A program made the translations under genes and the position numbers. The notes below the pieces were generated by a model that worked only from the letters and a program-made list of their open reading frames with translations, was not told where the DNA came from and searched no databases. This document shows, in pieces, positions 28,133-43,010 of a DNA stretch of 64,000 nucleotides (position 1 is its first letter; each line of letters starts with the position of its first letter). Source of the DNA: Candidatus Spongiisociaceae bacterium (GTDB lineage: Bacteria; Actinomycetota; Acidimicrobiia; Spongiisociales; Spongiisociaceae); assembly GCA_965219685.1 (NCBI GenBank), contig CBDCOH010000002.1:2176001-2240000 (forward strand). Direction: 5' to 3'.

Positions 28133-28164
28133 TAGTTGCACAATTGTAATCGTAGTTGTACAAT
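28133..28164. promoter_or_regulatory. Phd/YefM-type autoregulatory operator pair
   Basis: TAGTTGCACAAT and TAGTTGTACAAT, 20 bp apart, with a TG(T/C)ACA core, directly upstream of the antitoxin. Confidence 0.6.
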
Positions 28165-28171
28165 CTGTGTC

Positions 28172-28462
28172 ATGGGATTGACACCAGACGCCCTGCCAGA
28201 TGTGAAGAGCATCCCGATCAGCGAATTCCGTCGGAAGTGCCTCACCCTTCTCCCGGCGATAGCGGAGAACGGGGGCGAGATCATCGTCACCAGGCGCGGC
28301 AGGCCCTTGGCGGTCGTCTCGCCGATCCGCCAGGGCGGGTCCGGCAGCATCTATGGCCTCTACTCAGCCGGCGACCTAGTATATCCCGACCCCACCGCGC
28401 CTCATTACTCAGACGAGGAGTGGGATGAGATCGTCGATGCCTGGGACGCGAACACCGACTAG
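28172..28462 (+). CDS. Phd/YefM-family antitoxin
   Basis: SIPISEFRRKCLTLL...EIIVTRRGRPLAVVSP with an acidic tail; start 28172 or GTG 28202. Confidence 0.88.
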   Translation: MGLTPDALPDVKSIPISEFRRKCLTLLPAIAENGGEIIVTRRGRPLAVVSPIRQGGSGSIYGLYSAGDLVYPDPTAPHYSDEEWDEIVDAWDANTD

Positions 28463-28492
28463 GAACAGGCGTTCAGTGGCGGAGGCTGCTCG

Positions 28493-28930
28493 ATGAAGCG
28501 GTCCGTGGTACTCGATACGCACATCCTCATCGCATACCTGCGGGGCGCTCTTGGCGGAGACGGAAAGCCCAAGACCCTACTCCGTGTCCTGAGATCTGCA
28601 GAAGATGAGAGAAGTTTGCTCGTGTCGGCGGCCACATTCTGGGAAATCGAACTGATCCGCCGAAACCCCAGGAATGACTTGCGAGCACTCCCGCCTACCG
28701 ATTCTCTCGTCTGGACGCTGAGATCGAAGGGTGTCACAACAGTCCCGGTTACTCCCGAACTGGCTGTGCGAGCTGTCCGCCTGCTCGACGAGGGCTTCCA
28801 CAAGGACCCGATGGACCAGTTCATCGCCGCAACCGCGATCGTGGAGGAGAGCATCCTGGCCACACGCGACCGGGCGATCAGAACGTGGGCCGAAGAACGC
28901 GGCATGCCCGAGTTGGCCCCGATGGATTGA
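28493..28930 (+). CDS. vapC: PIN-domain VapC-family toxin
   Basis: VVLDTHIL, VSAATFWEI, HKDPMDQFIAATA, LATRD. Confidence 0.9.
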   Translation: MKRSVVLDTHILIAYLRGALGGDGKPKTLLRVLRSAEDERSLLVSAATFWEIELIRRNPRNDLRALPPTDSLVWTLRSKGVTTVPVTPELAVRAVRLLDEGFHKDPMDQFIAATAIVEESILATRDRAIRTWAEERGMPELAPMD

Positions 28931-28968
28931 CGGGTAGCCCCCCGGCCAGGTCCCATCCTAGGGCGCTA

Positions 28969-29907
28969 TTACCTCTCCTCCCGGGAGTAGGGAATTCCCA
29001 AGGCGGCCGGGGCGCCGATGCGCCTGCGGAGGTCGCCCCGGGCGAGGACGAACAAGGCGGCGATGGTGATCAGGAAAGGCATCATCTTCAGGACCTCGGC
29101 AGGGATCTCATCGAACCCGAGAGCCTGCAAAGTGAAGTTGGTCCGTACGGCCAGACCGAAGATGTAAGCACCGATCAACAGCCGGAACGGTCTCCAAGCT
29201 GCGAACACCACCAACCCGATGGCGATCCATCCCAGACCGGCGACGGTAGCCTCGGCGTTCCATGATGTGACGATCACGGTGATAAGGTTCGCGCCGCCGA
29301 GCCCGGCCAGCGCACCGCCGACTATCGCGTAGACGTAGCGGGTCCTGAGCACGTTGATCCCGACCGTGTCGGCGGTCGCGGGCTCCTCGCCGACCGCCCG
29401 CAACGACAGCCCGAGCCGTGTCCGCGATATGTGGAGGCCGGTCAACGCCACGAGCGCCCAGGAGATGTAGACGAAAATGCTCTGGCGGAACAGGACCGGC
29501 CCCAGCACCGGCACCTGGCTCAAGCCCGGGATCTCGATGGCGGTAACGGCCCTGTTGATCACGGTGAAGCCGTGCGGTTCGCCGATGAAGCGCGCCACTC
29601 CGGAGGCGAAAATGAACAGGGCGAGACCGGACAGTATCTGGTTGGCGCGGAACGAGACTGAGAGCACGGCGTGCAGACCGCCGATCAGCGCTCCCCAGAT
29701 CATGCCGACCACCACGCCCACCACTACGTTGTCGGTCGCCTGAATCGCCGTGAAGGTCCCGATGGCACCGAGCAACATGGTCCCCTCGACCGACAGGTTG
29801 AGAATCCCGGACCGCTCGCTGAGCAACTCCCCCAGTCCAGCCAGGACGATCGGCGTCCCGGCTGTGATGGCGCCGGCGAGGGTGAGGACCAGCACACTCT
29901 CGTTCAT
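28969..29907 (-). CDS. Nucleoside/BMP-type ABC transporter permease
   Basis: LGELLSERSGILNLSVEG, AGLGWIAIGLVVF, PAALGIPY. Confidence 0.93.
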   Translation of the reverse strand: MNESVLVLTLAGAITAGTPIVLAGLGELLSERSGILNLSVEGTMLLGAIGTFTAIQATDNVVVGVVVGMIWGALIGGLHAVLSVSFRANQILSGLALFIFASGVARFIGEPHGFTVINRAVTAIEIPGLSQVPVLGPVLFRQSIFVYISWALVALTGLHISRTRLGLSLRAVGEEPATADTVGINVLRTRYVYAIVGGALAGLGGANLITVIVTSWNAEATVAGLGWIAIGLVVFAAWRPFRLLIGAYIFGLAVRTNFTLQALGFDEIPAEVLKMMPFLITIAALFVLARGDLRRRIGAPAALGIPYSREER

Positions 29908-31085
29908 GTACTCGACTCCTCCCGTGGAACTGTCTCTGCTCCCGGTGTTGCTGCCACGGCGTCCGGGGCATCATCCGGACCGGCGCGGCGCGGTATCCAG
30001 CGCCATCGATAGGACAGAAGGGTTGCACCGCCCACGACGAAGAGGATCAAGGTTCCCTGCACGATTATCGAAACCGAAATCGGGATCGGGTTGGCCATCG
30101 ACTGCAGGGTCAGGGCCGCGTTCTCCACCGCGCCCAGGATCACGGCGGAGACGACAATGCCCAACGGAGTCAGCCTGCCGAGTGCGGCGACCACGATCCC
30201 GGTGTATCCGAGCCCGGCGGCGAAGCCCTCGGGGCTGAAACGCCCACCCCTCCCCAGCAGCTCGATTGCGCCGGCGAGGCCGGCCAGCGAACCGGAGATC
30301 AGCATTACCCGCATCGTGAGAGCACCGATGCTTATCCCGGAATAGTGAGCGGCCTTTGTGGAGCTGTTCATCACGCGCATCGTGAATCCGAGCCGAGTGT
30401 GCCGCAGGATGAAATGCACCGCGACCGCGGCGAGGATGGCGACGAAGAATCCCCAATGCAGCCTGGTCGTCCCGATCCTGGGCAGTTCCAGGAAGGAAGC
30501 CACCTCGCGACCAACCGGATGCCCGATAAGGGTCGTATCACGCCATGGACTGGTCGTGCCATCGACCAGGTAGTAGGAGAATATGACCGCCACGAAGTTG
30601 AGCATCAGGCTGGTGAGTATCTCGTTGACGCCGTACCTGGCCTTGCCGTAGGCCACCAGGGCAACCCAGAACACACCGCCGAACATCCCGGCGATCAGTG
30701 TCATAGGAATCCCGATCTGGGGTGCCATGATGTCGCCTATCCAGACGCCGAACCCGGTAGCGGCAATGGCGCCGAATATGAGTTGACCCTCGGCGCCGAT
30801 GTTCCAGAGCCGGACGCGGAATGCAAAAGCCACGGCGAGGCCGGTGAGGATCAGCGGAGTGGCACTCGTCAGCGTGTCGGCGAAACCGAACCACGATCCG
30901 AAGGCTGTCTTGACGATCTCAACATAGACCTTGAGCGGATCGAACGAGCGGAAGGCGAGAAACGCCGCCACGACCACGAGCGCGAGCGCGATAGACCCTA
31001 TAGGGAGCACAACCTTCAGCCACAGCGGCGCCGCCGGTCGGGGCTCGACGACCACGGGCCAGCGGAAGGCGCGACCGCTGCTCAT
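29904..31085 (-). CDS. Nucleoside/BMP-type ABC transporter permease
   Basis: TPLILTGLA, WNIGAEGQ, NEILTSLMLNF, GYTGIVVA. Confidence 0.93.
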   Translation of the reverse strand: MSSGRAFRWPVVVEPRPAAPLWLKVVLPIGSIALALVVVAAFLAFRSFDPLKVYVEIVKTAFGSWFGFADTLTSATPLILTGLAVAFAFRVRLWNIGAEGQLIFGAIAATGFGVWIGDIMAPQIGIPMTLIAGMFGGVFWVALVAYGKARYGVNEILTSLMLNFVAVIFSYYLVDGTTSPWRDTTLIGHPVGREVASFLELPRIGTTRLHWGFFVAILAAVAVHFILRHTRLGFTMRVMNSSTKAAHYSGISIGALTMRVMLISGSLAGLAGAIELLGRGGRFSPEGFAAGLGYTGIVVAALGRLTPLGIVVSAVILGAVENAALTLQSMANPIPISVSIIVQGTLILFVVGGATLLSYRWRWIPRRAGPDDAPDAVAATPGAETVPREESST

Positions 31086-32575
31086 GCGCTGCTCCCGGTC
31101 ATCGCCAACCCGACCATTTCCCGATCAAGATCTTCGATCGCCGTCTCGTATGCGACCGTACCCTCGTAGAGAACCATCACGGTGTCAGCGAGCGCGAGCA
31201 CCTCGTCCAGGTCCTCGGATATGAGCACGATCGCGCACCCCTCCTCGCGCAGACGACCCATCTCCTCGTGCACGAACTGGGCCGAGGCGACATCCAGGCC
31301 TTGGGTCGGCGAAGACAACACAAGCACCTCCGGGGAACCCGAAAGCTCTCGCGCCAGGATCACCCGCTGGAGGTTCCCGCCCGATAGGGTGCCCGTCTTC
31401 ACATCAGGCCCGGCAACCACGATCCCGTAGTCCTCGATGTGCCGGAGCGCCCGTCGTTGCGCGTGCGAAGCCTTGAACCCGCCCCTCGCCGCGTCGGTCA
31501 ACATCAGGTTCTCGGCAACGGAGAGGTCCGGCGCCAAGCCGGTGTGGAGGCGATCACTCGGAATGTAACCGAGACCCTGGTCGCGGGCGGCCCTCGGACC
31601 GCGCCCGGTTGTTTCCTCTCCCCCGATCTCCACTGAACCCGAGTCGGGCGCGACGAGGCCGGCCAGCACGTCGGCGAGTAGTTCCTGACCGTTGCCTGCC
31701 ACACCTGCGATACCGACGATCTCCCCCGAACGCGCGGCAAGCGTGATCCCATGCAGCCCTTCCCGGTCATTCGTCCTGGACACCTCGAGATCTCTCGCTG
31801 CCAAGACCGGTTCTCCGACCTCGACGGAGCCTTCCAGGCGGGAGAACTCGTGCTCCACCGGACGACCGATCATGGCGGTGGCCAGGGCGGCCGCCGTGGT
31901 CTTCTCCGTAGGGACGACCAGTTCAACACGACCGTCTCGCATCACCGTCACGGTGTCCGACACCGCCATCACCTCCCGCAGCTTGTGGGTGATGATCATG
32001 ACGGCGACCCCATCGGCCGCGAACGACCGGATCGTCTCGAAGAGACGCTCTACCTCCGCCGGTACCAGGACGGCCGTGGGCTCGTCGAGGAGGAGGACAT
32101 CGACGCCCCGGAAGAGGGTCTTCAGCAGATCGACCCGTTGCCGCTCGCCCGCCGACAACTCTCCGGCATAGGCTCCCACGCGTACCGAAAGACCGTAGCG
32201 CTCCATGAGCGAGCGGACCCTGGCGCGGATCTTGCTGTAGTCCAGGTAATAGGAGAGATCGGGGTCACCGAGGACGATGTTCTCCTCGACGGTCAGCCGG
32301 TCCACCAGCCGAGCATGCTGGTGAACCATGCCGACGCCTCTCGCCAGCGCATCAGGCGGGTTCCGGAACTCGACGACCTCTCCGTCGAGCTTCAGGGTTC
32401 CTGCATCGGGTCTGTAGAGACCGGAGAGCATGTTGGCCAGCGTCGTCTTCCCCGCGCCGTTCTGGCCGAGCACGGCATGTACTGAATGCCGCGCCAGGAA
32501 CAGGTCCACGGAGTCATTGGCGACAACCGATCCGAAGCTCTTGCTCAGCCCGTGAGCCTCAAACATGCCGTTCAC
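31082..32575 (-). CDS. ABC transporter ATP-binding protein (double NBD, CUT2 type)
   Basis: GQNGAGKTT, LLLDEPT, AGVAGNGQ, LSGGNLQR. Confidence 0.95.
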   Translation of the reverse strand: MNGMFEAHGLSKSFGSVVANDSVDLFLARHSVHAVLGQNGAGKTTLANMLSGLYRPDAGTLKLDGEVVEFRNPPDALARGVGMVHQHARLVDRLTVEENIVLGDPDLSYYLDYSKIRARVRSLMERYGLSVRVGAYAGELSAGERQRVDLLKTLFRGVDVLLLDEPTAVLVPAEVERLFETIRSFAADGVAVMIITHKLREVMAVSDTVTVMRDGRVELVVPTEKTTAAALATAMIGRPVEHEFSRLEGSVEVGEPVLAARDLEVSRTNDREGLHGITLAARSGEIVGIAGVAGNGQELLADVLAGLVAPDSGSVEIGGEETTGRGPRAARDQGLGYIPSDRLHTGLAPDLSVAENLMLTDAARGGFKASHAQRRALRHIEDYGIVVAGPDVKTGTLSGGNLQRVILARELSGSPEVLVLSSPTQGLDVASAQFVHEEMGRLREEGCAIVLISEDLDEVLALADTVMVLYEGTVAYETAIEDLDREMVGLAMTGSSA

Positions 32576-32700
32576 CGATCCGGACCGACCCTACGGACCC
32601 GAGCAAGATCGGACGGTTCTCAGCCATAGCTAACAATCTACATCCGCCTAGCCGAAGTGGCGGGGTTTCAACCCACAAGCGTGTGACGCCTGGGTGGGAG

Positions 32701-32730
32701 AGAGGTCCCCGCCCATGAACGGGGACCTCT
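32701..32730 (-). terminator. Intercistronic hairpin after the binding-protein gene
   Basis: AGAGGTCCCCG-N8-CGGGGACCTCT, a perfect 11-bp stem; weak U-tract, so it may act as an mRNA stabiliser. Confidence 0.55.
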
Positions 32731-32794
32731 ACCGACCTCCGCCGGCGGGATCACCGATCGTGCTGATCGGGCGGACCACCACCAGCCTGTCTCG

Positions 32795-33946
32795 TTACGA
32801 TGGGAAGCCCCCGATTACCCCTTCGAGAAGGAAGTCCATACCCAGGAGGAAGCCGAGATCGGCGACCTCGCCATCCGCGAGCACCTGGTTACCGTCCTGG
32901 TCATAGAGGGGACCGGTGAACACGTTCAGTTCCCCGCTGGTCATACCTTCTACTGCCGCATCGAGCAGCGCGACCGTCTCGTCAGACAGGAAGTCTGCGT
33001 ACGGGCCCGGGGATAGGAGCCCAGCCCCCAGAGTCAGATAGGTGTTGCCGGCTTCGTAGGTTCCGTCGATCATCTGTTGAGCCACTTCGGCGAAGTAGCC
33101 TCCAAGTTCCAGGAGGGCGCCGGTGAGATAGGCCTCGGGAGCGAACCTCTGTCCGTTGTCATAGATCTCGATCCAGTAGCCACCCCGAGACTGCGCCACC
33201 TCTCCCGCGGTGGTCAACTCGGTTACCTGGGCCACGGCTCTGACGCCCGTGTCGAACAGCGATTCCGCGGCTTGGCCTTCAATGAGCGGGTCGAACCACG
33301 TTCCGGTCCAGACGACCTGGACGGTCGCGTCCGGGTTGATAGACCTGGCCCCCAGCAGCAACCCGTTGATGTCGCGCAGGACCTCGGGGATCGGATACGA
33401 GGCTAGGATGCCGATCTCGTCGGCCTCCACCAGGCTCGCGGCCGCTAAGCCGCCCAGATACATGCCCTGCTCGAAACCACCGTCGTACGATCCGACGTTC
33501 TCGGACAGCAGGAAGAAACCCGGGCCGAGGAACTGGGCTTCAGGATACTTCTCCGCCACTGCGACCACTTGGTCCTGGTAATCGAAAGAAGTCGTGACGA
33601 GCAATGTGAACCCTTGCCTGATGAGATCTTCGAACACCCGTTCTGCTTCGGCTGTCGCGGGTACGGACTCGAGGAAGATCGTCTCCACCGCGTCGCCCAT
33701 GATGTCTTCCAGTTCACGCCGTCCCATGTCGTGCCGGAAGTTCCAGCCATGCTCGCCCACAGGCCCCTGATGCACGAAAGCAACCTTCAATGGCTCCGCA
33801 GCCGGTGCCTCTGTCGTGGCAGGCGCCGCCGCCGTCGTCGTTACCTGGGCAGCTGTGGTGGTCGGCTCGGCTTCCTCACCGCCGCAGGCAACGGCAACCA
33901 AGAGCAGCGCAACCAGGCCGGCAACCAGTCTCATCGATGTCCTCAT
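32795..33946 (-). CDS. BMP-family ABC substrate-binding lipoprotein
   Basis: LVAVAC lipobox, TTTAA linker, GWNFRHDMGR, YPIPEVLRDIN, WTGTWFDP, FTGPLYDQDG. Confidence 0.93.
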   Translation of the reverse strand: MRTSMRLVAGLVALLLVAVACGGEEAEPTTTAAQVTTTAAAPATTEAPAAEPLKVAFVHQGPVGEHGWNFRHDMGRRELEDIMGDAVETIFLESVPATAEAERVFEDLIRQGFTLLVTTSFDYQDQVVAVAEKYPEAQFLGPGFFLLSENVGSYDGGFEQGMYLGGLAAASLVEADEIGILASYPIPEVLRDINGLLLGARSINPDATVQVVWTGTWFDPLIEGQAAESLFDTGVRAVAQVTELTTAGEVAQSRGGYWIEIYDNGQRFAPEAYLTGALLELGGYFAEVAQQMIDGTYEAGNTYLTLGAGLLSPGPYADFLSDETVALLDAAVEGMTSGELNVFTGPLYDQDGNQVLADGEVADLGFLLGMDFLLEGVIGGFPS

Positions 33947-34124
33947 ACAAACCTCCGCAAGCCGGGGGAAGGCTGATGTCCTTGTCCCACCAGCCCATCC
34001 GCGGATGCTAGACCGTCCGTTCGTGACCCGGTGACCCTTCTCGCGACGTGGAATCGATCAGCCGGACCTGCAACAACGGGGTGACCCTCGCATTGTCGTG
34101 GCTCTCGGTGATCGCTCGCGCGGG

Positions 34125-34442
34125 TCAAGAACCCCGTGGTTCGAAACTTCGTTTCACGGCTTCTGAAGCCAGTTCGCTCGCCAAGCCAGTCAGCCATTCT
34201 CTGTAGCCATCCTTGTCGAGCATCATCCGGGCCTTGTTCCGGTCGATGGAATCTCGCTTGGCCCTCAGGAAGTCGTCCGTCTCCAAGCCTGGGATTTCCT
34301 CCGCAGCTTCGATCAGGCGGCTGGCGCCTTCGATGAGGCGGAACGAGCCGTAGATGGCCTTCTCATCAAGGCTGAGACGGGCGGAGGTGACCAGGTAAAG
34401 GATGAACTCGAAGAGCGGATCGTCGTGCTTGGCCTCGCTCAC
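34125..34442 (-). CDS. DUF6092 family protein, AlbB-like (cyclodipeptide oxidase beta-subunit-like)
   Basis: GTGA overlap with the upstream gene; 105 aa; YLVTSARLSLDEKAIYGSFRLIEGASRL resembles the AlbB/DUF6092 core (recalled as YLLSSGRGLLEEPADYGIYR). Confidence 0.78.
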   Translation of the reverse strand: MSEAKHDDPLFEFILYLVTSARLSLDEKAIYGSFRLIEGASRLIEAAEEIPGLETDDFLRAKRDSIDRNKARMMLDKDGYREWLTGLASELASEAVKRSFEPRGS

Positions 34443-35011
34443 GGGACGTCGCTCCAATCCTGCCCGTAGCGATCGTGGTGGACGGTGGGGTGGAAACCCT
34501 TGACCGGCTTGGGATGATCGGCCACGGGAATCCCGACCGCCATGAGAACCTCCGGCCTGATGTGGTCCGGAAGGCCGAAGATCGCCTGGACCACCTCCTC
34601 GGTCCAACTGGTCACCTTGCAGACGCCGATCCCGAGCGCGGGAGCGGCGATGGTCACGAAGGCGGCCGCGGCGCCTGCGTCGAGCCGGGTCACGACCTCG
34701 ACTCCGCGCGGTCCCATGACATCGTGGGCCTTCTCGAGATCGCTGCAGATGACGATGATGGCGGGAGCGTTGTTCACGAAGCCCGGGCAGGCCTGTCTCA
34801 CGGTCCACACCAGCCGCGGATCGGTCACGACGATGAGATGGCGGATTCCCGGCCTGGCAACCTGAGCCCTACCGGCCGCGTATACGAGTTTATCGAGCGT
34901 GTCCTGATCCGGAGGATCGGGAAGAAAGACCCGATGCATGCGGCGTCGCCGCATCGCCTCGAACACGGCTTGCGCCAGTATCTTTGCGGAATGGGATCTG
35001 CCCTCGGCCAC
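34439..35011 (-). CDS. Nitroreductase-family flavoprotein, AlbA-like (cyclodipeptide oxidase alpha-subunit-like)
   Basis: RRRMHRVF, APAIIVIC, LDAGAAA, ALGIGVC, FGLPDHIRPEVLMAVG. Confidence 0.85.
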   Translation of the reverse strand: MAEGRSHSAKILAQAVFEAMRRRRMHRVFLPDPPDQDTLDKLVYAAGRAQVARPGIRHLIVVTDPRLVWTVRQACPGFVNNAPAIIVICSDLEKAHDVMGPRGVEVVTRLDAGAAAAFVTIAAPALGIGVCKVTSWTEEVVQAIFGLPDHIRPEVLMAVGIPVADHPKPVKGFHPTVHHDRYGQDWSDVP

Positions 35012-35187
35012 CGTGCGACTGTACTACAGCGGCGTTCGGCCGGTATCCGACCCCCAACCGCCGGAAACGACCTCGACGCAGGCGGCTCGTCCGGCACCCG
35101 GGTCGCACCCCGGGTTCACTTGGGGCAGCCGGACCGACTCCTACCGCCTGATCGTCCCCATCGGTGCGTCAGCCGGCGTGTCGGCCT

Positions 35188-36450
35188 CTACCACCAGCGC
35201 GTGCGAGCAGTACTCCAGGTCTCGAATCCATCTGAGGTAACCAGGCCATTGTCCTCATGAAAGACACCACCGACCCCCTCAGCACCGAGAAAACCCTCGA
35301 GTGCCAGGTACATCCCTGGCTCCAGCACGACGTCCTCGTTCGGCCTCAGCCACGGGCTCTCCCATGTCAGCCCGAGACCGTGTCCGAGGACCGGAGACTC
35401 TTCCTCGCTCAGCGCGAGCGGAGTGCCAGCGGCCGCTTCGGAGAGCCACTGAATCCCCTGCCGGTGGACCTCTCCGGCTGTCATACCTGGCTTCGTCATA
35501 TCCGCAAGATGTTCGACAAGACCAACGCTCGCCTCCAGGACAATCAGCTGCTCGTCTCGTGGATCGCCACCCACGACCGTCGTCCTTCCGAAGTCCCACA
35601 GGTAGCCCCCATAAGCTCCGTAGCAGTCGGCGTGGAACCAATCGCCCGACTCCAGCGGTCGATAGGCGTCGTACGTCGGGAGCCGTGACCATAGGAAATG
35701 ATGTGCCAGGCGGCCGGATGTCGTGGGCATGTCGTACATGACGGCCCCCGACCCCACGATCACGTCCGCGGCGGCGCGTACCGCGTCAACTTCCCGGTTT
35801 CCCTCTTGGACCGCAGCCATCATCGCGTCCACGGCGCGGCTGCCGATATGCGCTCCCCGACGGAGGATCTCCAGTTCGGCGGGACTCTTGACCCGCCGAA
35901 GTTCCTCGATGAGCATGTCCGCCACGACAAGGGTGGTCTTGCCGGCGACGTGCCGCTGCAACCCGAGGTACGCCGCCGCGGACATGAAGCTCGTGCCGAC
36001 CAGGCCGACCCTGTTGTCCACCAGCCCGCTGTCGCGTAACGCCTTCCCGACCTCGGAATTGATGTCGCTCGCCGCGCGCACGTCATCAGCGACCACAAGG
36101 TCGGGTCTCCACCACGGTCCGTCGACGATGAGAATCGCCGGCCCATCGACCGGAAGCACCGTGACAGCATGGGAACGAGCCGTTCCGAGTTCCTGGTGGT
36201 CGCCGAAGTAGGGATGCGGGGAGTAGTGGTTGGTCAGGTAGAAGACCTCGGGGTGCATGTCCACCGCACTGCCGCCCCTCGAGTAGACAACGAGCGCGTC
36301 GAGCGAGGCCGCTGCCGCCTTGGCACGAGCGGAGTCCTGGCGCTGGAGAAACTCCTCCCTCGGGACAAGGATCTCCGGTCTCTCGAACGCGACCGAGTCT
36401 GTGTCAGACGTGAACCCGAGACCGATGTCACCAACGGTCATTGCCCTCAC
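35188..36450 (-). CDS. M24 Xaa-Pro peptidase / creatinase-fold hydrolase
   Basis: RRVKSPAEL, ADC..GYLWDFGRT, GHGLGL, LEPGMYLALE, HEDN; the D,D,H,E,E metal ligands are present. Confidence 0.88.
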   Translation of the reverse strand: MRAMTVGDIGLGFTSDTDSVAFERPEILVPREEFLQRQDSARAKAAAASLDALVVYSRGGSAVDMHPEVFYLTNHYSPHPYFGDHQELGTARSHAVTVLPVDGPAILIVDGPWWRPDLVVADDVRAASDINSEVGKALRDSGLVDNRVGLVGTSFMSAAAYLGLQRHVAGKTTLVVADMLIEELRRVKSPAELEILRRGAHIGSRAVDAMMAAVQEGNREVDAVRAAADVIVGSGAVMYDMPTTSGRLAHHFLWSRLPTYDAYRPLESGDWFHADCYGAYGGYLWDFGRTTVVGGDPRDEQLIVLEASVGLVEHLADMTKPGMTAGEVHRQGIQWLSEAAAGTPLALSEEESPVLGHGLGLTWESPWLRPNEDVVLEPGMYLALEGFLGAEGVGGVFHEDNGLVTSDGFETWSTARTRWW

Positions 36451-36494
36451 CCGAGGGAGACCAGAGAACCCTTGCGATACAAGATCCTCGCTCT

Positions 36495-36544
36495 GTGCCG
36501 GGGGTAGGGTTTGAATCTACGACGCTCGGGAAAAGAGCCCGACG
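36495..36544 (-). repeat. Degenerate copy of the 3' two-thirds of the neighbouring tRNA-Met (att-like relic)
   Basis: 41/50 nt identical to 36952-37001 by hand alignment, same orientation. Confidence 0.8.
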
Positions 36545-36794
36545 GGGCCTCCGAGTCACGATGCCGGGGCTGTTGTTCACGAAACGGCGGCTCCCACCGC
36601 TTCGAACATGCCCCGGGCTCATGGTGCTGTCGATCTGGCCCTCTGCCACCGGGCGACTCTACTACAGCACTTCCGAGGGCCGGGTCGGTAGCAGGAACAG
36701 CAGACCCTCTGGATCGGCGACCGGAGAACACGGAGATGGAGAAAGATGCCACCGGTCGCCGTATCCATGCCATAGCCTTGTTCAGGCCACACTA

Positions 36795-36815
36795 AAATGA
36801 TAACAGTTCTCATTT
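36795..36815. promoter_or_regulatory. Fur/Zur-like box
   Basis: AAATGATAACAGTTCTCATTT, a 10-1-10 inverted repeat with one mismatch, AT-rich within GC-rich DNA. Confidence 0.6.
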
Positions 36816-36916
36816 AACTGTGCCAGATGTGTGCCGCTGAGTTCGGCCAGCACACTGCTTGCGGCCGGATGGCTCGGAACTACTCACTTAGATGACGGCC
36901 GAGAGGTCGAAACGAG

Positions 36917-36945
36917 CAAGACCCAGGCGCTGCGCCCGGGTCTTG
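36917..36945 (-). terminator. Hairpin downstream of the tRNA
   Basis: The minus strand reads CAAGACCCGGGCG-CAG-CGCCTGGGTCTTG (one G.U pair), starting 6 nt after the tRNA. Confidence 0.65.
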
Positions 36946-36950
36946 TGTTA

Positions 36951-37027
<77 letters not shown>

Positions 37028-37092
37028 TCGTTCGGACCACTTAGTTTAAACCACCAGAGCTTCCTAAGCCAATGCGTACGGCGGGAAGTCCC

Positions 37093-37767
37093 TCAGCCGA
37101 TCAGCGGTAGTCGCGGGTCCGGATGGTCGGAACGGCCTGACGCTGCCCGTATCCAGGCCCAGTCGTCCTCCTGCAGGTCGCTGGGACGGCCCGGCACCGT
37201 TCGCTGAGCCAGGACACCATCCAGGATGCCCGCGGTCACTGCGATCCCTTCGCGTGTTGCGATGGGCTCGATCCCCAGTGCGTCAGTCAGATCGATGCCG
37301 TGTGCTACCGCCTCCACCATGCGGCTCGCCACGAACTCGTCGAGTTGCATCAGCGCGTAGTAGCCCGATCCGATCGTCTCCGGCGGCGTTGCACGAGCCT
37401 CTTCGATCGTCTTGGAAAAGGTCTCGTCGAGAACTCCAACGATGTCCTGCGGGGTCTTCCCCTCGATCATCACGTACGCGTAGTCATACACGACGGGCGC
37501 CACCTCGGAACGCGGGAAGATGAAGAAGCTGATCCGGTCACGACCGACCTGGCCCTCTTGGGGATCCGCTAAGAGCATCCGCGTCAGCCCGATCGAAATG
37601 TCGAAGTGGCCGGCGAGTTCGAACACCGTCCACGGCGTGGCGTCCTCATCGAAGGGAACCAGGTGCGTCGGCATCTGCCACTGTTCATCGGTCAGATCCC
37701 GTAACACGTCCAAAATCCCGTTGAGTTCGCCATCGAGAATGTCCACCATCTCCATATGTGAAACCAT
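37093..37767 (-). CDS. MDMPI_N / DinB-superfamily (mycothiol-dependent) protein
   Basis: LTDEQWQMPT, WTVFELAGH, EAVAHGIDL metal-binding pattern. Confidence 0.8.
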   Translation of the reverse strand: MVSHMEMVDILDGELNGILDVLRDLTDEQWQMPTHLVPFDEDATPWTVFELAGHFDISIGLTRMLLADPQEGQVGRDRISFFIFPRSEVAPVVYDYAYVMIEGKTPQDIVGVLDETFSKTIEEARATPPETIGSGYYALMQLDEFVASRMVEAVAHGIDLTDALGIEPIATREGIAVTAGILDGVLAQRTVPGRPSDLQEDDWAWIRAASGRSDHPDPRLPLIG

Positions 37768-37892
37768 TTGACTCTCCTTACCCGATGGGCCTCCGTTGCC
37801 CTCCTATCAATCTACCGCTTCCGCTACTTCTGGAGCAGGCTAGATCCGGTATCTCACCGGTGGCAGCCTCCCGGGGAATGCTCCGTAGGCAC

Positions 37893-39119
37893 TCATAGAA
37901 CGGCCGCAAGCCGGAGTGCCTCGTCGAAGGAGGCATCGTTCAGCAGCAGCCGGCGCATCTTCATCAAGGGCCCCATCATGTCGATTGCGAAGGCGCCGCC
38001 CAGCCGGTCTCCCCGCCGGTACAGAGCCATCAGGGCGGGCCCGTCCTCTGCGTCGTGGACGAACACCACCTCGTCCCCGGATGCCAGGCCCACCAGTTGC
38101 AGGCGGTGTCCGTACTGGTCGGACCAGAAGTACGGGATCCCCGAGTAGGCAACAGGGGCGTCGCCGGCGAAGGTGTTGATGATGTTGCGGGCCACCGTGG
38201 TGGACTGCTCCACGGTGTTGGTCCAGTGCTCCACCCTCATGCGCTGCCCGAACCGGGGGTTGTGCCAGGAGGCAAGGTCGCCTAGGGCGTACACACCCGG
38301 GAGGGAGGTCCGCATGTGTCGGTCGCAGATCACCGCCCGGTCGGTAGCCATCCCGGAACCGTCGAGCCACTCGATGTTGGGGATCACCCCGATGCCCACC
38401 ACCACGACATCGCAGGAGACCGCGGACGCGTCCGATAGGTGCACGGCCAATCCGCCGGGTGCTTGGTCCACGCCCACGACGCCGACACCGCAGCGCAGTT
38501 CTGTTCCGTAGGCGCCGTGTAGCGCGGCGCAGCGCTCCCCTACCTCGGCGCCCACCGCCATGACCAAGGGTTGCTCGGCCGCCTCGATGATGGTCACGTC
38601 GATCCCCCTGCTGCGGGCGCTGGCCGCCACCTCGCTGCCGATGAACCCCGCCCCGACCACCACCAGATGGCCCGCATCGTCAAGGGCCGACCGGATCGCG
38701 GTCGAATCGTCGAGCGTGCGCATCACGTTGACTCCGGGCACCGTTTCCATCCCGGGAATCTGTCGGGGACGGGCACCTGTGGCTATCACCGCCGCCTCGT
38801 ATTCCAGCCGCTCACCGGTGGCCAGCGTGATGCTCCGGGAGTCGCCGTCGAGAGAGACAGCCGGCGAGCCGAGCCTCAACTCGATCCCTTGCTCCTCGAA
38901 GAAGTCGGCAGTCCGGAATATGGCGTCATCCGGTTGTTTCTCGCCGGTGAGTACCTCCTTCGAGAGCGGAGGCCGGTCGTAGGGGAGGTGTGCTTCGTCA
39001 CCCGCCAGCGTGATCCGCCCTTCGAAGCCGAGCCTGCGGAGCGCGGAGGCCGTACGCAGTCCGCCCAGCGACGCACCGACGATTACGACCGATGGAGAGT
39101 CGGGACCGGGAACTTTCAC
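37893..39119 (-). CDS. FAD-dependent ferredoxin reductase (GR type)
   Basis: VIVGASLGG, PYDRPPLSK, GAGFIGSE, RVEHWTN, PYFWSDQY; GTG 39119 overlaps the upstream stop. Confidence 0.93.
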   Translation of the reverse strand: MKVPGPDSPSVVIVGASLGGLRTASALRRLGFEGRITLAGDEAHLPYDRPPLSKEVLTGEKQPDDAIFRTADFFEEQGIELRLGSPAVSLDGDSRSITLATGERLEYEAAVIATGARPRQIPGMETVPGVNVMRTLDDSTAIRSALDDAGHLVVVGAGFIGSEVAASARSRGIDVTIIEAAEQPLVMAVGAEVGERCAALHGAYGTELRCGVGVVGVDQAPGGLAVHLSDASAVSCDVVVVGIGVIPNIEWLDGSGMATDRAVICDRHMRTSLPGVYALGDLASWHNPRFGQRMRVEHWTNTVEQSTTVARNIINTFAGDAPVAYSGIPYFWSDQYGHRLQLVGLASGDEVVFVHDAEDGPALMALYRRGDRLGGAFAIDMMGPLMKMRRLLLNDASFDEALRLAAVL

Positions 39120-40168
39120 CCGGTGGGAGCGAGCTCGATCTTGCCGTCCGCGAACTCCAGGAGCCAGCGACGGTAAAGGACCGTGCCGAGGTCGGCTGCC
39201 TTGACGTGCATCTCGGCGGTCAGCTCCACGGGGAGCTCCTCGGGCCGTTGTGACTCGACCACCGGCCTGTCCTGGGCGAGGATCACGTGCTGCATCCGGA
39301 TGAAGTCCTCGTCCCGTTCGAAGGCGTAGTCCCTTGCCACGAAGGTGAAACACCGGGTCCGCTTGCGGCTCACCGGCGCCACCGCGACGAACAGGATGAA
39401 GGTCTCGTTGGGGCCCGCCGAACTGTCCAGCCACATGGCGTTGGGCATGAAGACCCTGTACCGCTTCCAAGCCTCATAGGTCTGACCCTCGTCGGAGACC
39501 ATCGAGTTTTTCGGGTTGTCGGTGTATTCGAGGAAGGGGCCTGCGTTGATGCGGATCTCTCCCCCTTGGCGCACGGCCTCGTAATCAGCGATGACGGCGT
39601 TGTCCCTGTCACCGAGAATTCCGTGATGGACGTGGGCGAAGTGGGAGAAGTCGAAGTAGTTCTCGAGCCGCCTCCCTACCGAGCAGTTCCACTCGTAGGG
39701 TTCCCAGCGCAGGATCCGGAATCCGGGATCGTCGAGTTCGGGCAGCACGGCCGGAGGGAAGACGGGGGGTTCATCGGCGAGGCAGGTCCACACCAGGCCG
39801 CCCGACTCGATAGCCGGGTACACCGGAAGCTGGGCCTTCAGCTTCCCGTTGAGTTCCGGACGGGCCGGAATGTCCACGACTGTGCCCTCCTTGTCGTAGG
39901 CCCACCCGTGGTAGGCGCAGCGCAGCCAGCAACCGTCGATCCGGCCCAGCGACAGCGCCGAGCCCCGGTGGCGGCAGATGTCGTCGAACACGTATGGCTT
40001 GCCGTCGAGCCGGGCCACAGCCAGGCGCGTGTCGAAAAGGGTCACCTGGTGGGGTTTGTCGTTCAGGTCCTCGGAGAAGGCCACCGGTTGCCAGAACCTG
40101 CGCAACTGTTCGTAGAGGCGCTCCTCGCCGGCTACGTCGAGTTGGGTGGTCCCTTGCCGCATCCTCAC
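39116..40168 (-). CDS. Rieske oxygenase alpha subunit, VanA/NdmA-like (paralog 2)
   Basis: CRHRG...CAYHGW; RRLENYFDFSHFAHVH; VESQRPEELP; YRRWL. Confidence 0.93.
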   Translation of the reverse strand: MRMRQGTTQLDVAGEERLYEQLRRFWQPVAFSEDLNDKPHQVTLFDTRLAVARLDGKPYVFDDICRHRGSALSLGRIDGCWLRCAYHGWAYDKEGTVVDIPARPELNGKLKAQLPVYPAIESGGLVWTCLADEPPVFPPAVLPELDDPGFRILRWEPYEWNCSVGRRLENYFDFSHFAHVHHGILGDRDNAVIADYEAVRQGGEIRINAGPFLEYTDNPKNSMVSDEGQTYEAWKRYRVFMPNAMWLDSSAGPNETFILFVAVAPVSRKRTRCFTFVARDYAFERDEDFIRMQHVILAQDRPVVESQRPEELPVELTAEMHVKAADLGTVLYRRWLLEFADGKIELAPTG

Positions 40169-40221
40169 CTCCCCGTCGGGTATCGGTTACCGAACGTACG
40201 CGGCGCCGTGATGAACACGGC

Positions 40222-40422
40222 TCACGCGGTGTGGACGCTTATGGCCTCCACCGGGCAACACACTTCGGCGCTGAGCGCATCGTCGAGGAGTTCGTCGGGA
40301 ACATCCGGCTGGAGCACGATGATCTCCTCGTTGTCGTCGGAGACCTGGAACAGGTCCGGCGCCACCGACGCGCACATTCCGGACACTATGCATGTTGCAT
40401 GGTCGAGTTCGATTGTCGCCAC
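40222..40422 (-). CDS. Single-cluster (3Fe-4S type) ferredoxin
   Basis: CIVSGMC...CCPVEAI; GTG 40422 follows GGAGGAG. Confidence 0.9.
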   Translation of the reverse strand: MATIELDHATCIVSGMCASVAPDLFQVSDDNEEIIVLQPDVPDELLDDALSAEVCCPVEAISVHTA

Positions 40423-40503
40423 GCCGACTCCTCCGCTAGTTCGGCAGCCTTCACGCCGAACTATAGCCCCCATCAATGATGATCATCGGGCCAAGTCCAC
40501 AGA

Positions 40504-40522
40504 ATATGTCTCTAGTCAATAT
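40504..40522. promoter_or_regulatory. ATAT-N11-ATAT candidate operator
   Basis: ATAT GTCTCTAGTCA ATAT upstream of the ferredoxin; recurs at 52496, 56178 and 62564. Confidence 0.55.
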
Positions 40523-40563
40523 TATCGGCGAACCCGGAACCTCCGCCCGGCGACCCTCGATGC

Positions 40564-41616
40564 CTAGCCGCTCGCCAATTCGACCTTCCCGTTGGCGATC
40601 TCGAGCAGCCAGCGCCGGTACTCCAGCGTCCCCAGGTCGGCGCCCTTAACGTGCATCTCGGCGGCGAGATCGGCCGGCAACTCCTCGGGGCGCTGGGACT
40701 CGACGATGGGGCGGTCCTGGTCGGTGACCATCTGGGCGAAGGCCTTGAAGTCGGCGTCGCTGCCCGGGTAGTTGCGTCCAACGTAGGTGAATGCCCGCGT
40801 CCGCTTGCGGTTCACCGGCGCAGCGGCCACCCACAGCACGTAGTCCTCGACCGGCCCGGCATCGCTGTTGAGCTTCATTGCGTTGGGCAGGAAGACGCGG
40901 TAGCGCTTCATGGCATCGTAGGTCTCCCCCGAACCGGACTCCGGGTTGTTCTTGACGTTGTCGGTGAACTCGACGAAGGGGCCGGCGACGAACCGCAACT
41001 CTCCCCCCACCTTCTCCACGTCGTAGTCCTCGATGCGGGGTTGGCTGCTGTCGCCGAGGATGCCGTCGTGTACCCAGGCGAAGTGGGAGAAGTCGAAGTA
41101 GTTCTCCAGGCGGCGGGGCAGCGAACAGTCCCATTCGTAGATGTCCAGGTGGACGAACCTGTAGCTCGGATCGTCGAACTCGGGAATGGACGGCACCGGG
41201 AACTTGGGATCGCCGAGGGTCGTGTAGATGAGCCCGGACACCTCGACCGTCGGGAAGGAGGGCACCCGCACGTTGCGGAAGGCGGGCGAGAGTTCCTCCC
41301 GCGCCGGGACCCGGGTGACCCGGCCCTCCGCGTCGTAGGTCCAGCCGTGGTACGAGCAGCGGAGCTCGCAGCCGTCGATCACCTTCCCCAGCGAGAGGGC
41401 CGCTCCCCGGTGGCGGCAGAGATCCTCGAAGACGCGGGGAGCGCCGTCCAGTCGCACCACCACCAGTTGCTCCTCGAACAGGGTGAAGGCCTGGGGTTCG
41501 TCCTTGAGTTCGTCCGAGTAGGCGATGGGAAACCAGAAGTTCGCCCGCATCTGGTCGTAGAGCCGGTCCTCGGCTGCAACGTCGAGGAAGTCGCTGGTTG
41601 CGTGTCGGGTGGTCAC
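40564..41616 (-). CDS. Rieske oxygenase alpha subunit, VanA/NdmA-like (paralog 3)
   Basis: CRHRG...CSYHGW; RRLENYFDFSHFAWVH; closely similar to paralog 2. Confidence 0.93.
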   Translation of the reverse strand: MTTRHATSDFLDVAAEDRLYDQMRANFWFPIAYSDELKDEPQAFTLFEEQLVVVRLDGAPRVFEDLCRHRGAALSLGKVIDGCELRCSYHGWTYDAEGRVTRVPAREELSPAFRNVRVPSFPTVEVSGLIYTTLGDPKFPVPSIPEFDDPSYRFVHLDIYEWDCSLPRRLENYFDFSHFAWVHDGILGDSSQPRIEDYDVEKVGGELRFVAGPFVEFTDNVKNNPESGSGETYDAMKRYRVFLPNAMKLNSDAGPVEDYVLWVAAAPVNRKRTRAFTYVGRNYPGSDADFKAFAQMVTDQDRPIVESQRPEELPADLAAEMHVKGADLGTLEYRRWLLEIANGKVELASG

Positions 41617-41637
41617 GCTTCGCCTCCTAAAGATCGC

Positions 41638-42138
41638 CTAGGTTCCCTCGGGCGTCTCGACTCCCCATGTCGAGCAGACCGCCTTGACGATGTTCTGGTA
41701 CCCCGTGCACCGGCACAGGTTGCCCGAGAGCAGATCCACCACCTGCTCCGGTTCCCGGAAGTCGTCGGGGTCGACACTCTCGAGGGTCATCAGGAAGCCC
41801 GCGGTGCAGAAACCGCACTGCATGGCGTGGTTCTCGTGGAATGCCTGCTGCATCGGGGTGAGTTCCCCGTCGGTGGCGAGGTCCTCGACTGTTCTGATGG
41901 TGCTTCCGTCGGCCTGGACGGCCAGGGTCGAGCAGGAGCGAATGGAGTCGCCGTCGACGATCACCGTACAGGCGCCGCAGTAGCCGTGCTCGCACCCCAC
42001 GTGGGTGCCGGTCAGGCCGACCACGTCGCGGATGAAGTCGGATAGCAGCAGGCGGGCAGGAACCCGGTAGGTCACCTGCATCCCGTTGATCGTGACCGAA
42101 ACGTCGGCCTCGCGAGAGCCGTAGTTGGAAGCCATCAA
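41638..42138 (-). CDS. Xanthine dehydrogenase family 2Fe-2S small subunit (set 3)
   Basis: GCEHGYCGACTV, QCGFCTAG, NLCRCTGY. Confidence 0.94.
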   Translation of the reverse strand: MMASNYGSREADVSVTINGMQVTYRVPARLLLSDFIRDVVGLTGTHVGCEHGYCGACTVIVDGDSIRSCSTLAVQADGSTIRTVEDLATDGELTPMQQAFHENHAMQCGFCTAGFLMTLESVDPDDFREPEQVVDLLSGNLCRCTGYQNIVKAVCSTWGVETPEGT

Positions 42139-43010
42139 ACCCCCGTCCCATCTCCATTGGATGTGACCGCCGACCGGGCGGCCCTCACCACCAGCGCGCC
42201 GAGCGCCTCCCTGCGGTACTCGGCCGTCGCGTGTACATCGTCGACCGCGTCGGCGGCGTCCTCGTATGCCGCTGCATACACATCCGACCCGTCATCACCT
42301 GGCTCGAATCCCTGCATGGCCCCCTCCGCGCTTGCAATCCGGCTCGCCACACCGCTCACCCCGAAGCTGACCAGCCGCGCCCCGTTGATCCCTCCGCCTC
42401 GAAGGTCGAAGGATGCTGCGATGCCGGCGATGGCGAAGTCACCCGAGCGCCGGGCGATCTCGTCCACAACGGTCACAGTAGCGGGAGGCTCCGCCGGGAA
42501 GTGAACCCCGGTCACGATCTCCCTATGGGCGAGGTCGGTCCAGAAGGGTCCGAGGAAGAAGTCATCCGCCGCTACCGTCCTCTCACCGGCCGGGCCCCGG
42601 ACCGTGAGCGTCGCTCGGGAGGCTATGGCCAGGGCCGGCAGCTCGGCGGCCGGATCGGCGTGGGCGAGGCTACCGCACACCGTACCCCGGTTCCTGATCT
42701 GCAGGTGCCCCACGAAGCGCAGCGCTTTCCGCAGACCGGGCACCAAGCCGGCCACCGCGGCGGAGGCCATGACCCGGCTCTGGGTCACCGAGGCCCCGAT
42801 CGTGACGCCGCCGGAACCCGCCTCCAGACCGTTGAGCCCGTCCACCCCCCTGATGTCCACCAGGAGGTCCGGCAGGGCGAGGCGGAAGTTCATGCTTGGT
42901 ATGAGGCTCTGCCCTCCGGCCAGCACCTTGGCGGCGTCGGAGGAAGCCAGGGCGGCTACCGCATCGCCGATCGTGGAGGGCCGGTAGTAGTCGAAGGCGG
43001 CAGGCTTCAT
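42135..43010 (-). CDS. Xanthine dehydrogenase family FAD-binding medium subunit (set 3)
   Basis: MKPAAFDY, LAGGQSLIP, GHLQIRNRGTVCGSLAHADPAAE, RRSGDFA. Confidence 0.94.
   Translation of the reverse strand: MKPAAFDYYRPSTIGDAVAALASSDAAKVLAGGQSLIPSMNFRLALPDLLVDIRGVDGLNGLEAGSGGVTIGASVTQSRVMASAAVAGLVPGLRKALRFVGHLQIRNRGTVCGSLAHADPAAELPALAIASRATLTVRGPAGERTVAADDFFLGPFWTDLAHREIVTGVHFPAEPPATVTVVDEIARRSGDFAIAGIAASFDLRGGGINGARLVSFGVSGVASRIASAEGAMQGFEPGDDGSDVYAAAYEDAADAVDDVHATAEYRREALGALVVRAARSAVTSNGDGTGV

Follow-up and report, generated by a model that had tools for sequence, protein, structure and literature searches.

A predicted synthase-less cyclodipeptide-oxidase-like gene pair with an altered flavin-site motif in a Candidatus Spongiisociaceae bacterium

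A 64,000-nt stretch of the genome of Candidatus Spongiisociaceae bacterium (assembly GCA_965219685.1, contig CBDCOH010000002.1, positions 2,176,001 to 2,240,000; hereafter the window, in whose own numbering all coordinates are given) carries two overlapping genes, here called CDOA and CDOB. Judged by its sequence, the pair appears to be a genuine A/B flavoenzyme of the cyclodipeptide oxidase (CDO) type that lacks a cyclodipeptide synthase (CDPS). It lies on the same strand as an M24-family hydrolase gene and a BMP-type ABC importer. We consider it probable that the pair is a synthase-independent CDO-like flavoenzyme of the class described in 2024 and forms a self-contained unit, and that the M24 hydrolase and the importer are accessory cassettes. 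What is new is modest, namely the changed flavin-site motif of a subclade and the family-wide presence of the pair in these Acidimicrobiia.

Identity of the gene pair

The two genes are as follows.

34439-35011, minus strand: CDOA-like subunit, 190 aa, GTG start, nitroreductase fold (Pfam PF00881, E=1.8e-14)
34125-34442, minus strand: CDOB-like subunit, 105 aa, DUF6092 (PF19585, E=4.6e-19, 68.9 bits against a cut-off of 28.7)

The GTG start of CDOB overlaps the TGA stop of CDOA as GTGA at 34442-34439. An earlier reading made from the letters alone (the sequence-only reading) had taken these genes for an AlbA/AlbB-like pair coupled by this overlap. The matches to PF00881 and PF19585, with AlbA and NdasCDO-A as the nearest solved relatives, bear this out, and the peptide strings quoted in support of it are all present in the translations. 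The DUF6092 profile check proposed for the small open reading frame (ORF) gave the PF19585 match listed above.

More specifically, a sequence search of CDOA against solved structures placed NdasCDO-A (9exv_A, 1.8e-12) and AlbA (8uc3_A, 1.7e-11) at the top, above ordinary nitroreductases. With the AlphaFold2 model of CDOA (pLDDT 82), the first three Foldseek matches were 9exv_B, 9exv_A and 8uc3_A (E from 3e-11 to 1.8e-10, TM 0.70-0.78), only a little above generic nitroreductases, and identity to the AlbAB and NdasCDO chains in these alignments is only about 24-26%. For CDOB, AlbB (E=0.009) and NdasCDO-B (E=0.011) were the sole matches among solved structures. The helical character ascribed to the small protein agrees with its AlphaFold2 model, which is all-helical (pLDDT 88.7).

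The host genome has a single DUF6092 gene. A CDPS (PF16715) was found nowhere in the 4.42-Mb genome, which is 96.7% complete, by a search in which the Bacillus subtilis control was positive. The absence of a CDPS, first claimed for the window, is thereby extended to the whole genome.

Flavin site and predicted complex

A gapless alignment of the CDOA segment TRLDAGAAAAFVTIAAPALGIGVC against AlbA puts Asp111 at the position of AlbA Cys115, as expected from the earlier proposal that the pair lacks a flavinylated cysteine. The lone Cys within the TRLDAGAAAAFVTIAAPALGIGVC stretch aligns with a later Cys that is also present in AlbA and NdasCDO-A. Asp111 is invariant in the 18 aligned CDOA rows of alignment A3. 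In a wider survey, covering the best 150 of 1132 representative clusters at E<=0.001, the residue at the Cys115 position is Asp in 121 clusters and Cys in none.

At other positions of the pocket the comparison with NdasCDO is mostly conservative. A-Arg32, A-Ser145, B-Glu32, B-Tyr36 and B-Arg40 of NdasCDO are retained as R27, S135, E27, Y31 and R35, respectively, and the arginines that contact the phosphate and the ring in AlbAB and NdasCDO are kept. Thus alignment shows that most residues predicted to contact flavin mononucleotide (FMN) on the model of AlbAB and NdasCDO are retained in the pair. Two residues are altered (A-Asn59 to Arg53, B-Pro33 to Lys28), and A-Ser58 of NdasCDO falls in a one-residue gap of the CDOA alignment, i.e. 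it is deleted. The sequence-only reading had remarked that APTASN reads AQVARP here, and the alignment locates this change exactly, with Ser58 in the gap and Asn59 opposite Arg53.

The deletion-plus-Arg motif, GRAQVARPGIRH, is common to 17 of the 18 rows of alignment A3, and the remaining, more distant row keeps the canonical APSGSN. Among the same best 150 of 1132 clusters, 21 have the deletion-plus-Arg motif and 104 have a small residue followed by Asn. Because the motif is confined to 21 of these clusters and to 17 of the 18 A3 rows, the window enzyme is placed by its sequence in a distinct subclade with a predicted altered flavin pocket. A more far-reaching proposal is that enzymes of this subclade, with the deletion and the Arg and with flavin that is not covalently bound, run a reaction different from the O2-dependent desaturation of cyclodipeptides, for instance acceptor-linked dehydrogenation or reduction of another cyclic amide, and have a near-core role in the family. 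We regard this proposal as doubtful.

The same residues bear on a different explanation of the enzyme, namely that it is not a cyclic-amide oxidase or dehydrogenase at all. It could be an ordinary nitroreductase-type enzyme that reduces its substrate with NAD(P)H, or use another flavin-type cofactor, with a retained DUF6092 partner. Asp111 is the usual nitroreductase residue at its position, which fits the predominance of Asp in the cluster survey, and the Ser and Asn that are important in NdasCDO are both absent. Moreover, the available text of the 2024 study (PMC11055893) says that CDO-like enzymes without a CDPS may not be oxidases or dehydrogenases. However, the nearest solved relatives of CDOA by sequence and by fold are CDO A subunits, and the Glu, Tyr and Arg residues with which the B subunit of NdasCDO covers the flavin are kept. 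On balance we find a plain reductase improbable.

Structure prediction of an A2B2 complex with FMN gave a score of 0.45, the best of three controls scoring 0.00, and was graded as weak support. Among 80 solved complexes 58 pass the mark applied, and so do 2 of 110 mismatched pairs; passing scores at or below 0.60 come from just 7 of those 80 solved complexes together with both of the passing mismatches. At least 85% of contacts are common to the runs, and the partner has a pLDDT of 84 or higher. Since like complexes (8uc3, 9exv) are already solved, the prediction indicates likeness at most, and its pass may reflect the resemblance to those structures. The two proteins probably form a heteromeric complex with non-covalent FMN. 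The subunits would assemble like AlbAB, as A2 and B2 dimers with FMN bound non-covalently at the interface, and the electron acceptor need not be O2. Filaments and a reductive reaction, both raised in the sequence-only reading, are possible further features of the enzyme.

Conservation of the pair and its variable neighbourhood

We compared 20-kb neighbourhoods in 28 distinct related genomes (14 and a further 14; G023, with a contig of only 2157 nt, was excluded). CDOA and CDOB are adjacent in all 28. Within the family, DUF6092 was found in 15 of the 24 other genomes searched. It was found in none of the 16 genomes taken from the order's remaining families, and in 3 of 400 in a phylum-wide sample. 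In these Acidimicrobiia the pair is a unit that extends across the family, whose name suggests that these bacteria may be sponge symbionts. In G356, a distant member of the Actinomycetota, a DUF3830 gene and not a nitroreductase gene precedes the DUF6092 gene (L050, 9420-10253), and a hydantoinase A gene is nearby.

Around the pair the window contains the following features.

36951-37027, minus strand: tRNA-Met(CAT), found by ARAGORN and Rfam, the usual upstream neighbour of the pair
36499-36668, minus strand: decayed tandem-duplication remnant upstream of the M24 gene, found by repeat search and self-blastn
35188-36450, minus strand: M24/Creatinase_N hydrolase, 420 aa (PF00557, E=1.1e-25; PF01321)
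28970-34043, minus strand: BMP-type ABC importer cassette, 5.07 kb including a 97-nt leader, its limits set by homology to G006
32795-33946, minus strand: Bmp-family binding protein of the cassette (PF02608, E=5.5e-36)
31082-32575, minus strand: ABC ATPase of the cassette (Pfam)
29904-31085, minus strand: permease of the cassette (Pfam)
28969-29907, minus strand: second permease of the cassette (Pfam)

The tRNA-Met gene stands directly upstream of CDOA in 10 of the 28 related loci, and in three more a single gene lies between them. In those 10 loci, which come from two genera, the tRNA is on the same strand and 150-700 nt upstream of CDOA. The stretch between tRNA-Met and CDOA takes up genes, M24 in the window and a Na/Pi cotransporter in another locus (L037). 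Rfam searching of the window gave the tRNA as the sole match.

The M24 gene sits between tRNA-Met and CDOA, otherwise usually adjacent, and so has the position of an accessory insertion. An M24 orthologue is present within 10 kb of the pair in 3 of the 28 loci (G001, G002 and G007, each matched by the M24 protein in tblastn), and a BMP importer within the same distance in 2 of the 28 (G002 and G007), all of one genus. The uptake and catabolic operon suggested by the sequence-only reading was not supported, as a fixed unit, by this co-occurrence check, and the importer proved to be a separate cassette. In G002 M24 is set apart from the pair by a further ABC cassette, an aldehyde dehydrogenase gene and an AsnC regulator gene. 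Five relatives with the pair were searched at E<=1e-20, and none of the five yielded an M24 orthologue, a result that shows little as the same search had no positive-control genome.

Upstream of the M24 gene the duplication remnant comprises a copy of the CDOA start region (36638-36668, 31 nt, 90%), an FVNN-coding piece (36560-36583, 83%) and a copy of the 3' half of tRNA-Met (36499-36544, 46 nt, 85%). The same remnant is found in G007 (L027). The 31-nt sequence that stands upstream of both M24 and CDOA was considered as a shared regulatory RNA or operator. This was rejected, as the sequence includes the start codon of CDOA. Its upstream copy is accompanied by the FVNN-coding piece and the tRNA half-copy, and for that reason we read it as part of a decayed duplication and not as a regulatory element.

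The importer cassette is delimited more sharply. At the DNA level the window and G006 share a single 5080-nt block of 84% identity with sharp limits at 34043 and 28970, which begins 97 nt before the Bmp start and ends at the stop of the last permease gene. The cassette in G006 (a 91-93% orthologue) is 259 kb from CDOAB, directly beside another XDH-type set and a Rieske oxygenase gene. In G001 homology to the window extends across CDOAB as far as 34155 and begins again at 28954, within the following gene, the importer cassette being absent at the site. The importer is a discrete, separately placed cassette. In the stretch beyond it, a Phd/YefM-antitoxin-like ORF (28136-28462, plus strand; 28.3 bits, below the Pfam cut-off of 29.8) converges on a 165-aa ORF that has no family match (28459-28956, minus strand). 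Both directly follow CDOB in G001.

Elsewhere the neighbours of the pair vary widely, and those of most close relatives are unrelated. In a sister genus they include a divergent Amidohydro_1 gene and the trp operon; further species of the same genus as the window have an NrtR-type regulator and a class-III aminotransferase; DUF885, DAO, NIF3, ThyX, Na/Pi cotransporter and lactonase genes are found as well. In distant relatives (about 50% identity) the pair stands beside an M20 peptidase, SBP_bac_5 and hydantoinase A/B, in agreement with the enrichment published for CDO-like operons without a CDPS. Our preferred reading accounts for this variability as follows. In a few species belonging to a single genus, the M24 hydrolase and the BMP importer would have been inserted into this variable region next to the tRNA, and they would be non-obligate partners of the enzyme.

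Several observations weigh against that reading. AlbB was not retrieved by Foldseek with the CDOB monomer model, where FliS-type helical bundles came first (E of at least 0.2), so that the membership of CDOB rests on its profile match. Ser58 of the A subunit, held crucial in NdasCDO, is absent, and the chemistry may therefore differ from alpha,beta-dehydrogenation. As for the neighbourhood, all seven genes share a strand, the gaps measure 176 and 178 nt, and prediction placed no terminator-like site between them. They could therefore be co-transcribed by read-through and be functionally connected at this locus in this species. Finally, the pair is repeatedly accompanied by hydrolase and transporter genes in non-homologous forms (Amidohydro_1; M20, SBP_bac_5 and hydantoinase A/B), which fits a catabolic theme. 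A promoter and terminator scan was uninformative: it gave 2 promoter-like sites (1.5 expected) and 3 terminator-like sites (3.8 expected), and the genes of interest have none of them in between.

This strand and spacing pattern speaks for M24, CDOAB and the BMP importer being one catabolic operon, in which a cyclic substrate (diketopiperazine or nucleobase-like) would be imported, oxidised or reduced, and then hydrolysed by M24. The gene order is the same in G007 and in part in G001 and G002, peptidases and ABC transporters are enriched near CDOs without a CDPS according to the available text of PMC11055893, and the distant relatives have their peptidase, peptide-binding protein and hydantoinase genes beside the pair. 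However, the low co-occurrence in a single genus, the importer with its own 97-nt leader standing elsewhere in G006, the G001 locus with the pair and M24 and no importer at the site, the intervening genes of G002 and the lack of an M24 orthologue in the five pair-bearing relatives all argue against a single operon, and we find it quite unlikely.

The M24 protein itself has the prolidases 3q6d and 1pv9 as its best solved relatives, and in HMMER alignments the D, D, H, E and E columns are identical. We take these columns to be the five metal ligands. True creatinases are not known to have these metal ligands, and a creatinase reading of M24 was rejected on account of the intact columns.

The binding protein of the importer is similar over nearly its full length to 3s99 (4e-76) and AtzT (6pi5, 8e-66). 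The available text of PMC6834077 gives Kd values for AtzT of 110 nM for guanine and 2.5 uM for adenine, and reports adenine modelled in 3s99. Since the binding protein is closest to these two, the cassette is likely a purine-base importer. Upstream of the tRNA the window has further genes that could belong with it, and the remaining annotated features are given in the same list.

43007-44989, minus strand: MoCoBD gene of an XDH-family set
42135-43010, minus strand: FAD_binding_5 gene of the set
41638-42138, minus strand: Fer2_2 gene of the set
40564-41616, minus strand: Rieske/VanA-type oxygenase, about 350 aa
39116-40168, minus strand: second Rieske/VanA-type oxygenase, about 350 aa
37893-39470, minus strand: ferredoxin-reductase-type gene
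37093-37767: MDMPI_N gene, mycothiol-dependent maleylpyruvate-isomerase-like, between the reductase gene and tRNA-Met
25060-27570, plus strand: SNF2-family helicase gene, 836 aa

The XDH, Rieske and reductase genes of the window presumably resemble methylxanthine N-demethylases. In G006 the XDH/Rieske set beside the orthologous BMP importer (L051, 1-5919) is paralogous to the window set. The importer and the XDH/Rieske genes may be a module for uptake and oxidation of N-heterocycles, possibly methylated purines. The MDMPI_N gene was found in none of the related loci compared.

Could the pair belong to such a purine or N-heterocycle catabolic island (BMP importer, XDH-family molybdoenzyme, two Rieske/VanA oxygenases and ferredoxin reductase, 37893-44989) and act on a hydantoin- or allantoin-like ring intermediate? 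The likely purine specificity of the binding protein, the XDH-type and Rieske genes upstream in the window and in three relatives, and the importer cassette of G006 directly adjoining another XDH/Rieske set are all consistent with this, and nucleobase-related roles are among those proposed in the available text of PMC11055893. On the other side, the island of G006 is without the pair, which is 259 kb away, the pair and the oxygenase genes of the window stand on either side of a tRNA gene, and none of these genes is nearby in 24 of the 28 pair-bearing relatives. Within the annotated stretch 28136-44989 no uricase, allantoinase or hydantoin racemase was seen. It is therefore very unlikely that the island explains the pair, and the self-contained unit with accessory neighbours is the explanation that we retain.

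Published class and closest known systems

Enzymes of this kind are already in print. According to the available text of Andreas & Giessen 2024 (PMC11055893), 274 CDO operons were identified, 12% with a CDPS and 88% without, and Cys115 is retained only in CDPS-linked CDOA. The same text lists hydantoin racemase, DUF917, AroM, peptidases and transporters (dipeptide/oligopeptide ABC, OPT, EamA) as enriched around the CDOs that lack a CDPS, and proposes nucleobase- or hydantoin-related roles for these. The branch that the sequence-only reading called undescribed is thus a member of a synthase-less, Cys-less class reported in 2024. M24, BMP and Acidimicrobiia do not occur in the text of that paper as available. 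A full-text literature search (DUF6092, PF19585, CDO-like) returned no further paper on the subject and no characterised synthase-less member.

As a discovery the pair is ordinary, being a further member of a published class. The authors of the AlbAB structure have nevertheless raised the question of what synthase-less CDO-like enzymes do. For initial biochemical work the present subclade, compact and well conserved and with a predicted altered flavin pocket, would be a sensible candidate. The locus also cautions against inferring a substrate from neighbouring genes, which are here movable cassettes.

Based on the comparisons with known systems we note the following. AtzT (6pi5) and the Brucella 'basic membrane lipoprotein' 3s99, purine-binding proteins of the BMP type, show near-full-length similarity to the binding protein of the window only, not to the flavoenzyme. 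Prolidase, or Xaa-Pro dipeptidase (M24B; 3q6d, 1pv9), is similar to the M24 protein, which has the Creatinase_N and pita-bread domains. The M24 protein scores far under the cut-offs of the NCBIfam equivalogs compared (PepQ, the ectoine hydrolase DoeA, DddP and aminopeptidase P), at best 59 against 630 bits.

For the flavoenzyme, AlbAB of Streptomyces noursei (8uc3) and NdasCDO of Nocardiopsis dassonvillei (9exv) are the nearest solved relatives of both subunits, and they share with the pair the overlapping genes and the combination of a nitroreductase-fold A subunit with a DUF6092 B subunit. They are CDPS-linked and form filaments with 8-alpha-S-cysteinyl FMN, whereas the window genome is without a CDPS and has Asp in place of the flavin-linking Cys (C115 in AlbA, C121 in NdasCDO). 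Further differences, known here from sequence alone, are the deletion of A-Ser58, Arg for A-Asn59 and Lys for B-Pro33. The authors of the NdasCDO study consider A-Ser58 and B-Tyr36 crucial, according to the available text of PMC11760959.

The CDO-like operons without a CDPS, as described in the available text of PMC11055893, resemble the pair in having complete A and B subunits, no synthase and no Cys115. As to neighbours, the pair has a peptidase gene and an ABC importer beside it in the window, both read as accessory cassettes, and hydantoinase A/B, M20 peptidase and SBP_bac_5 appear only with distant relatives. M24 and BMP genes are not among the families named in that text.

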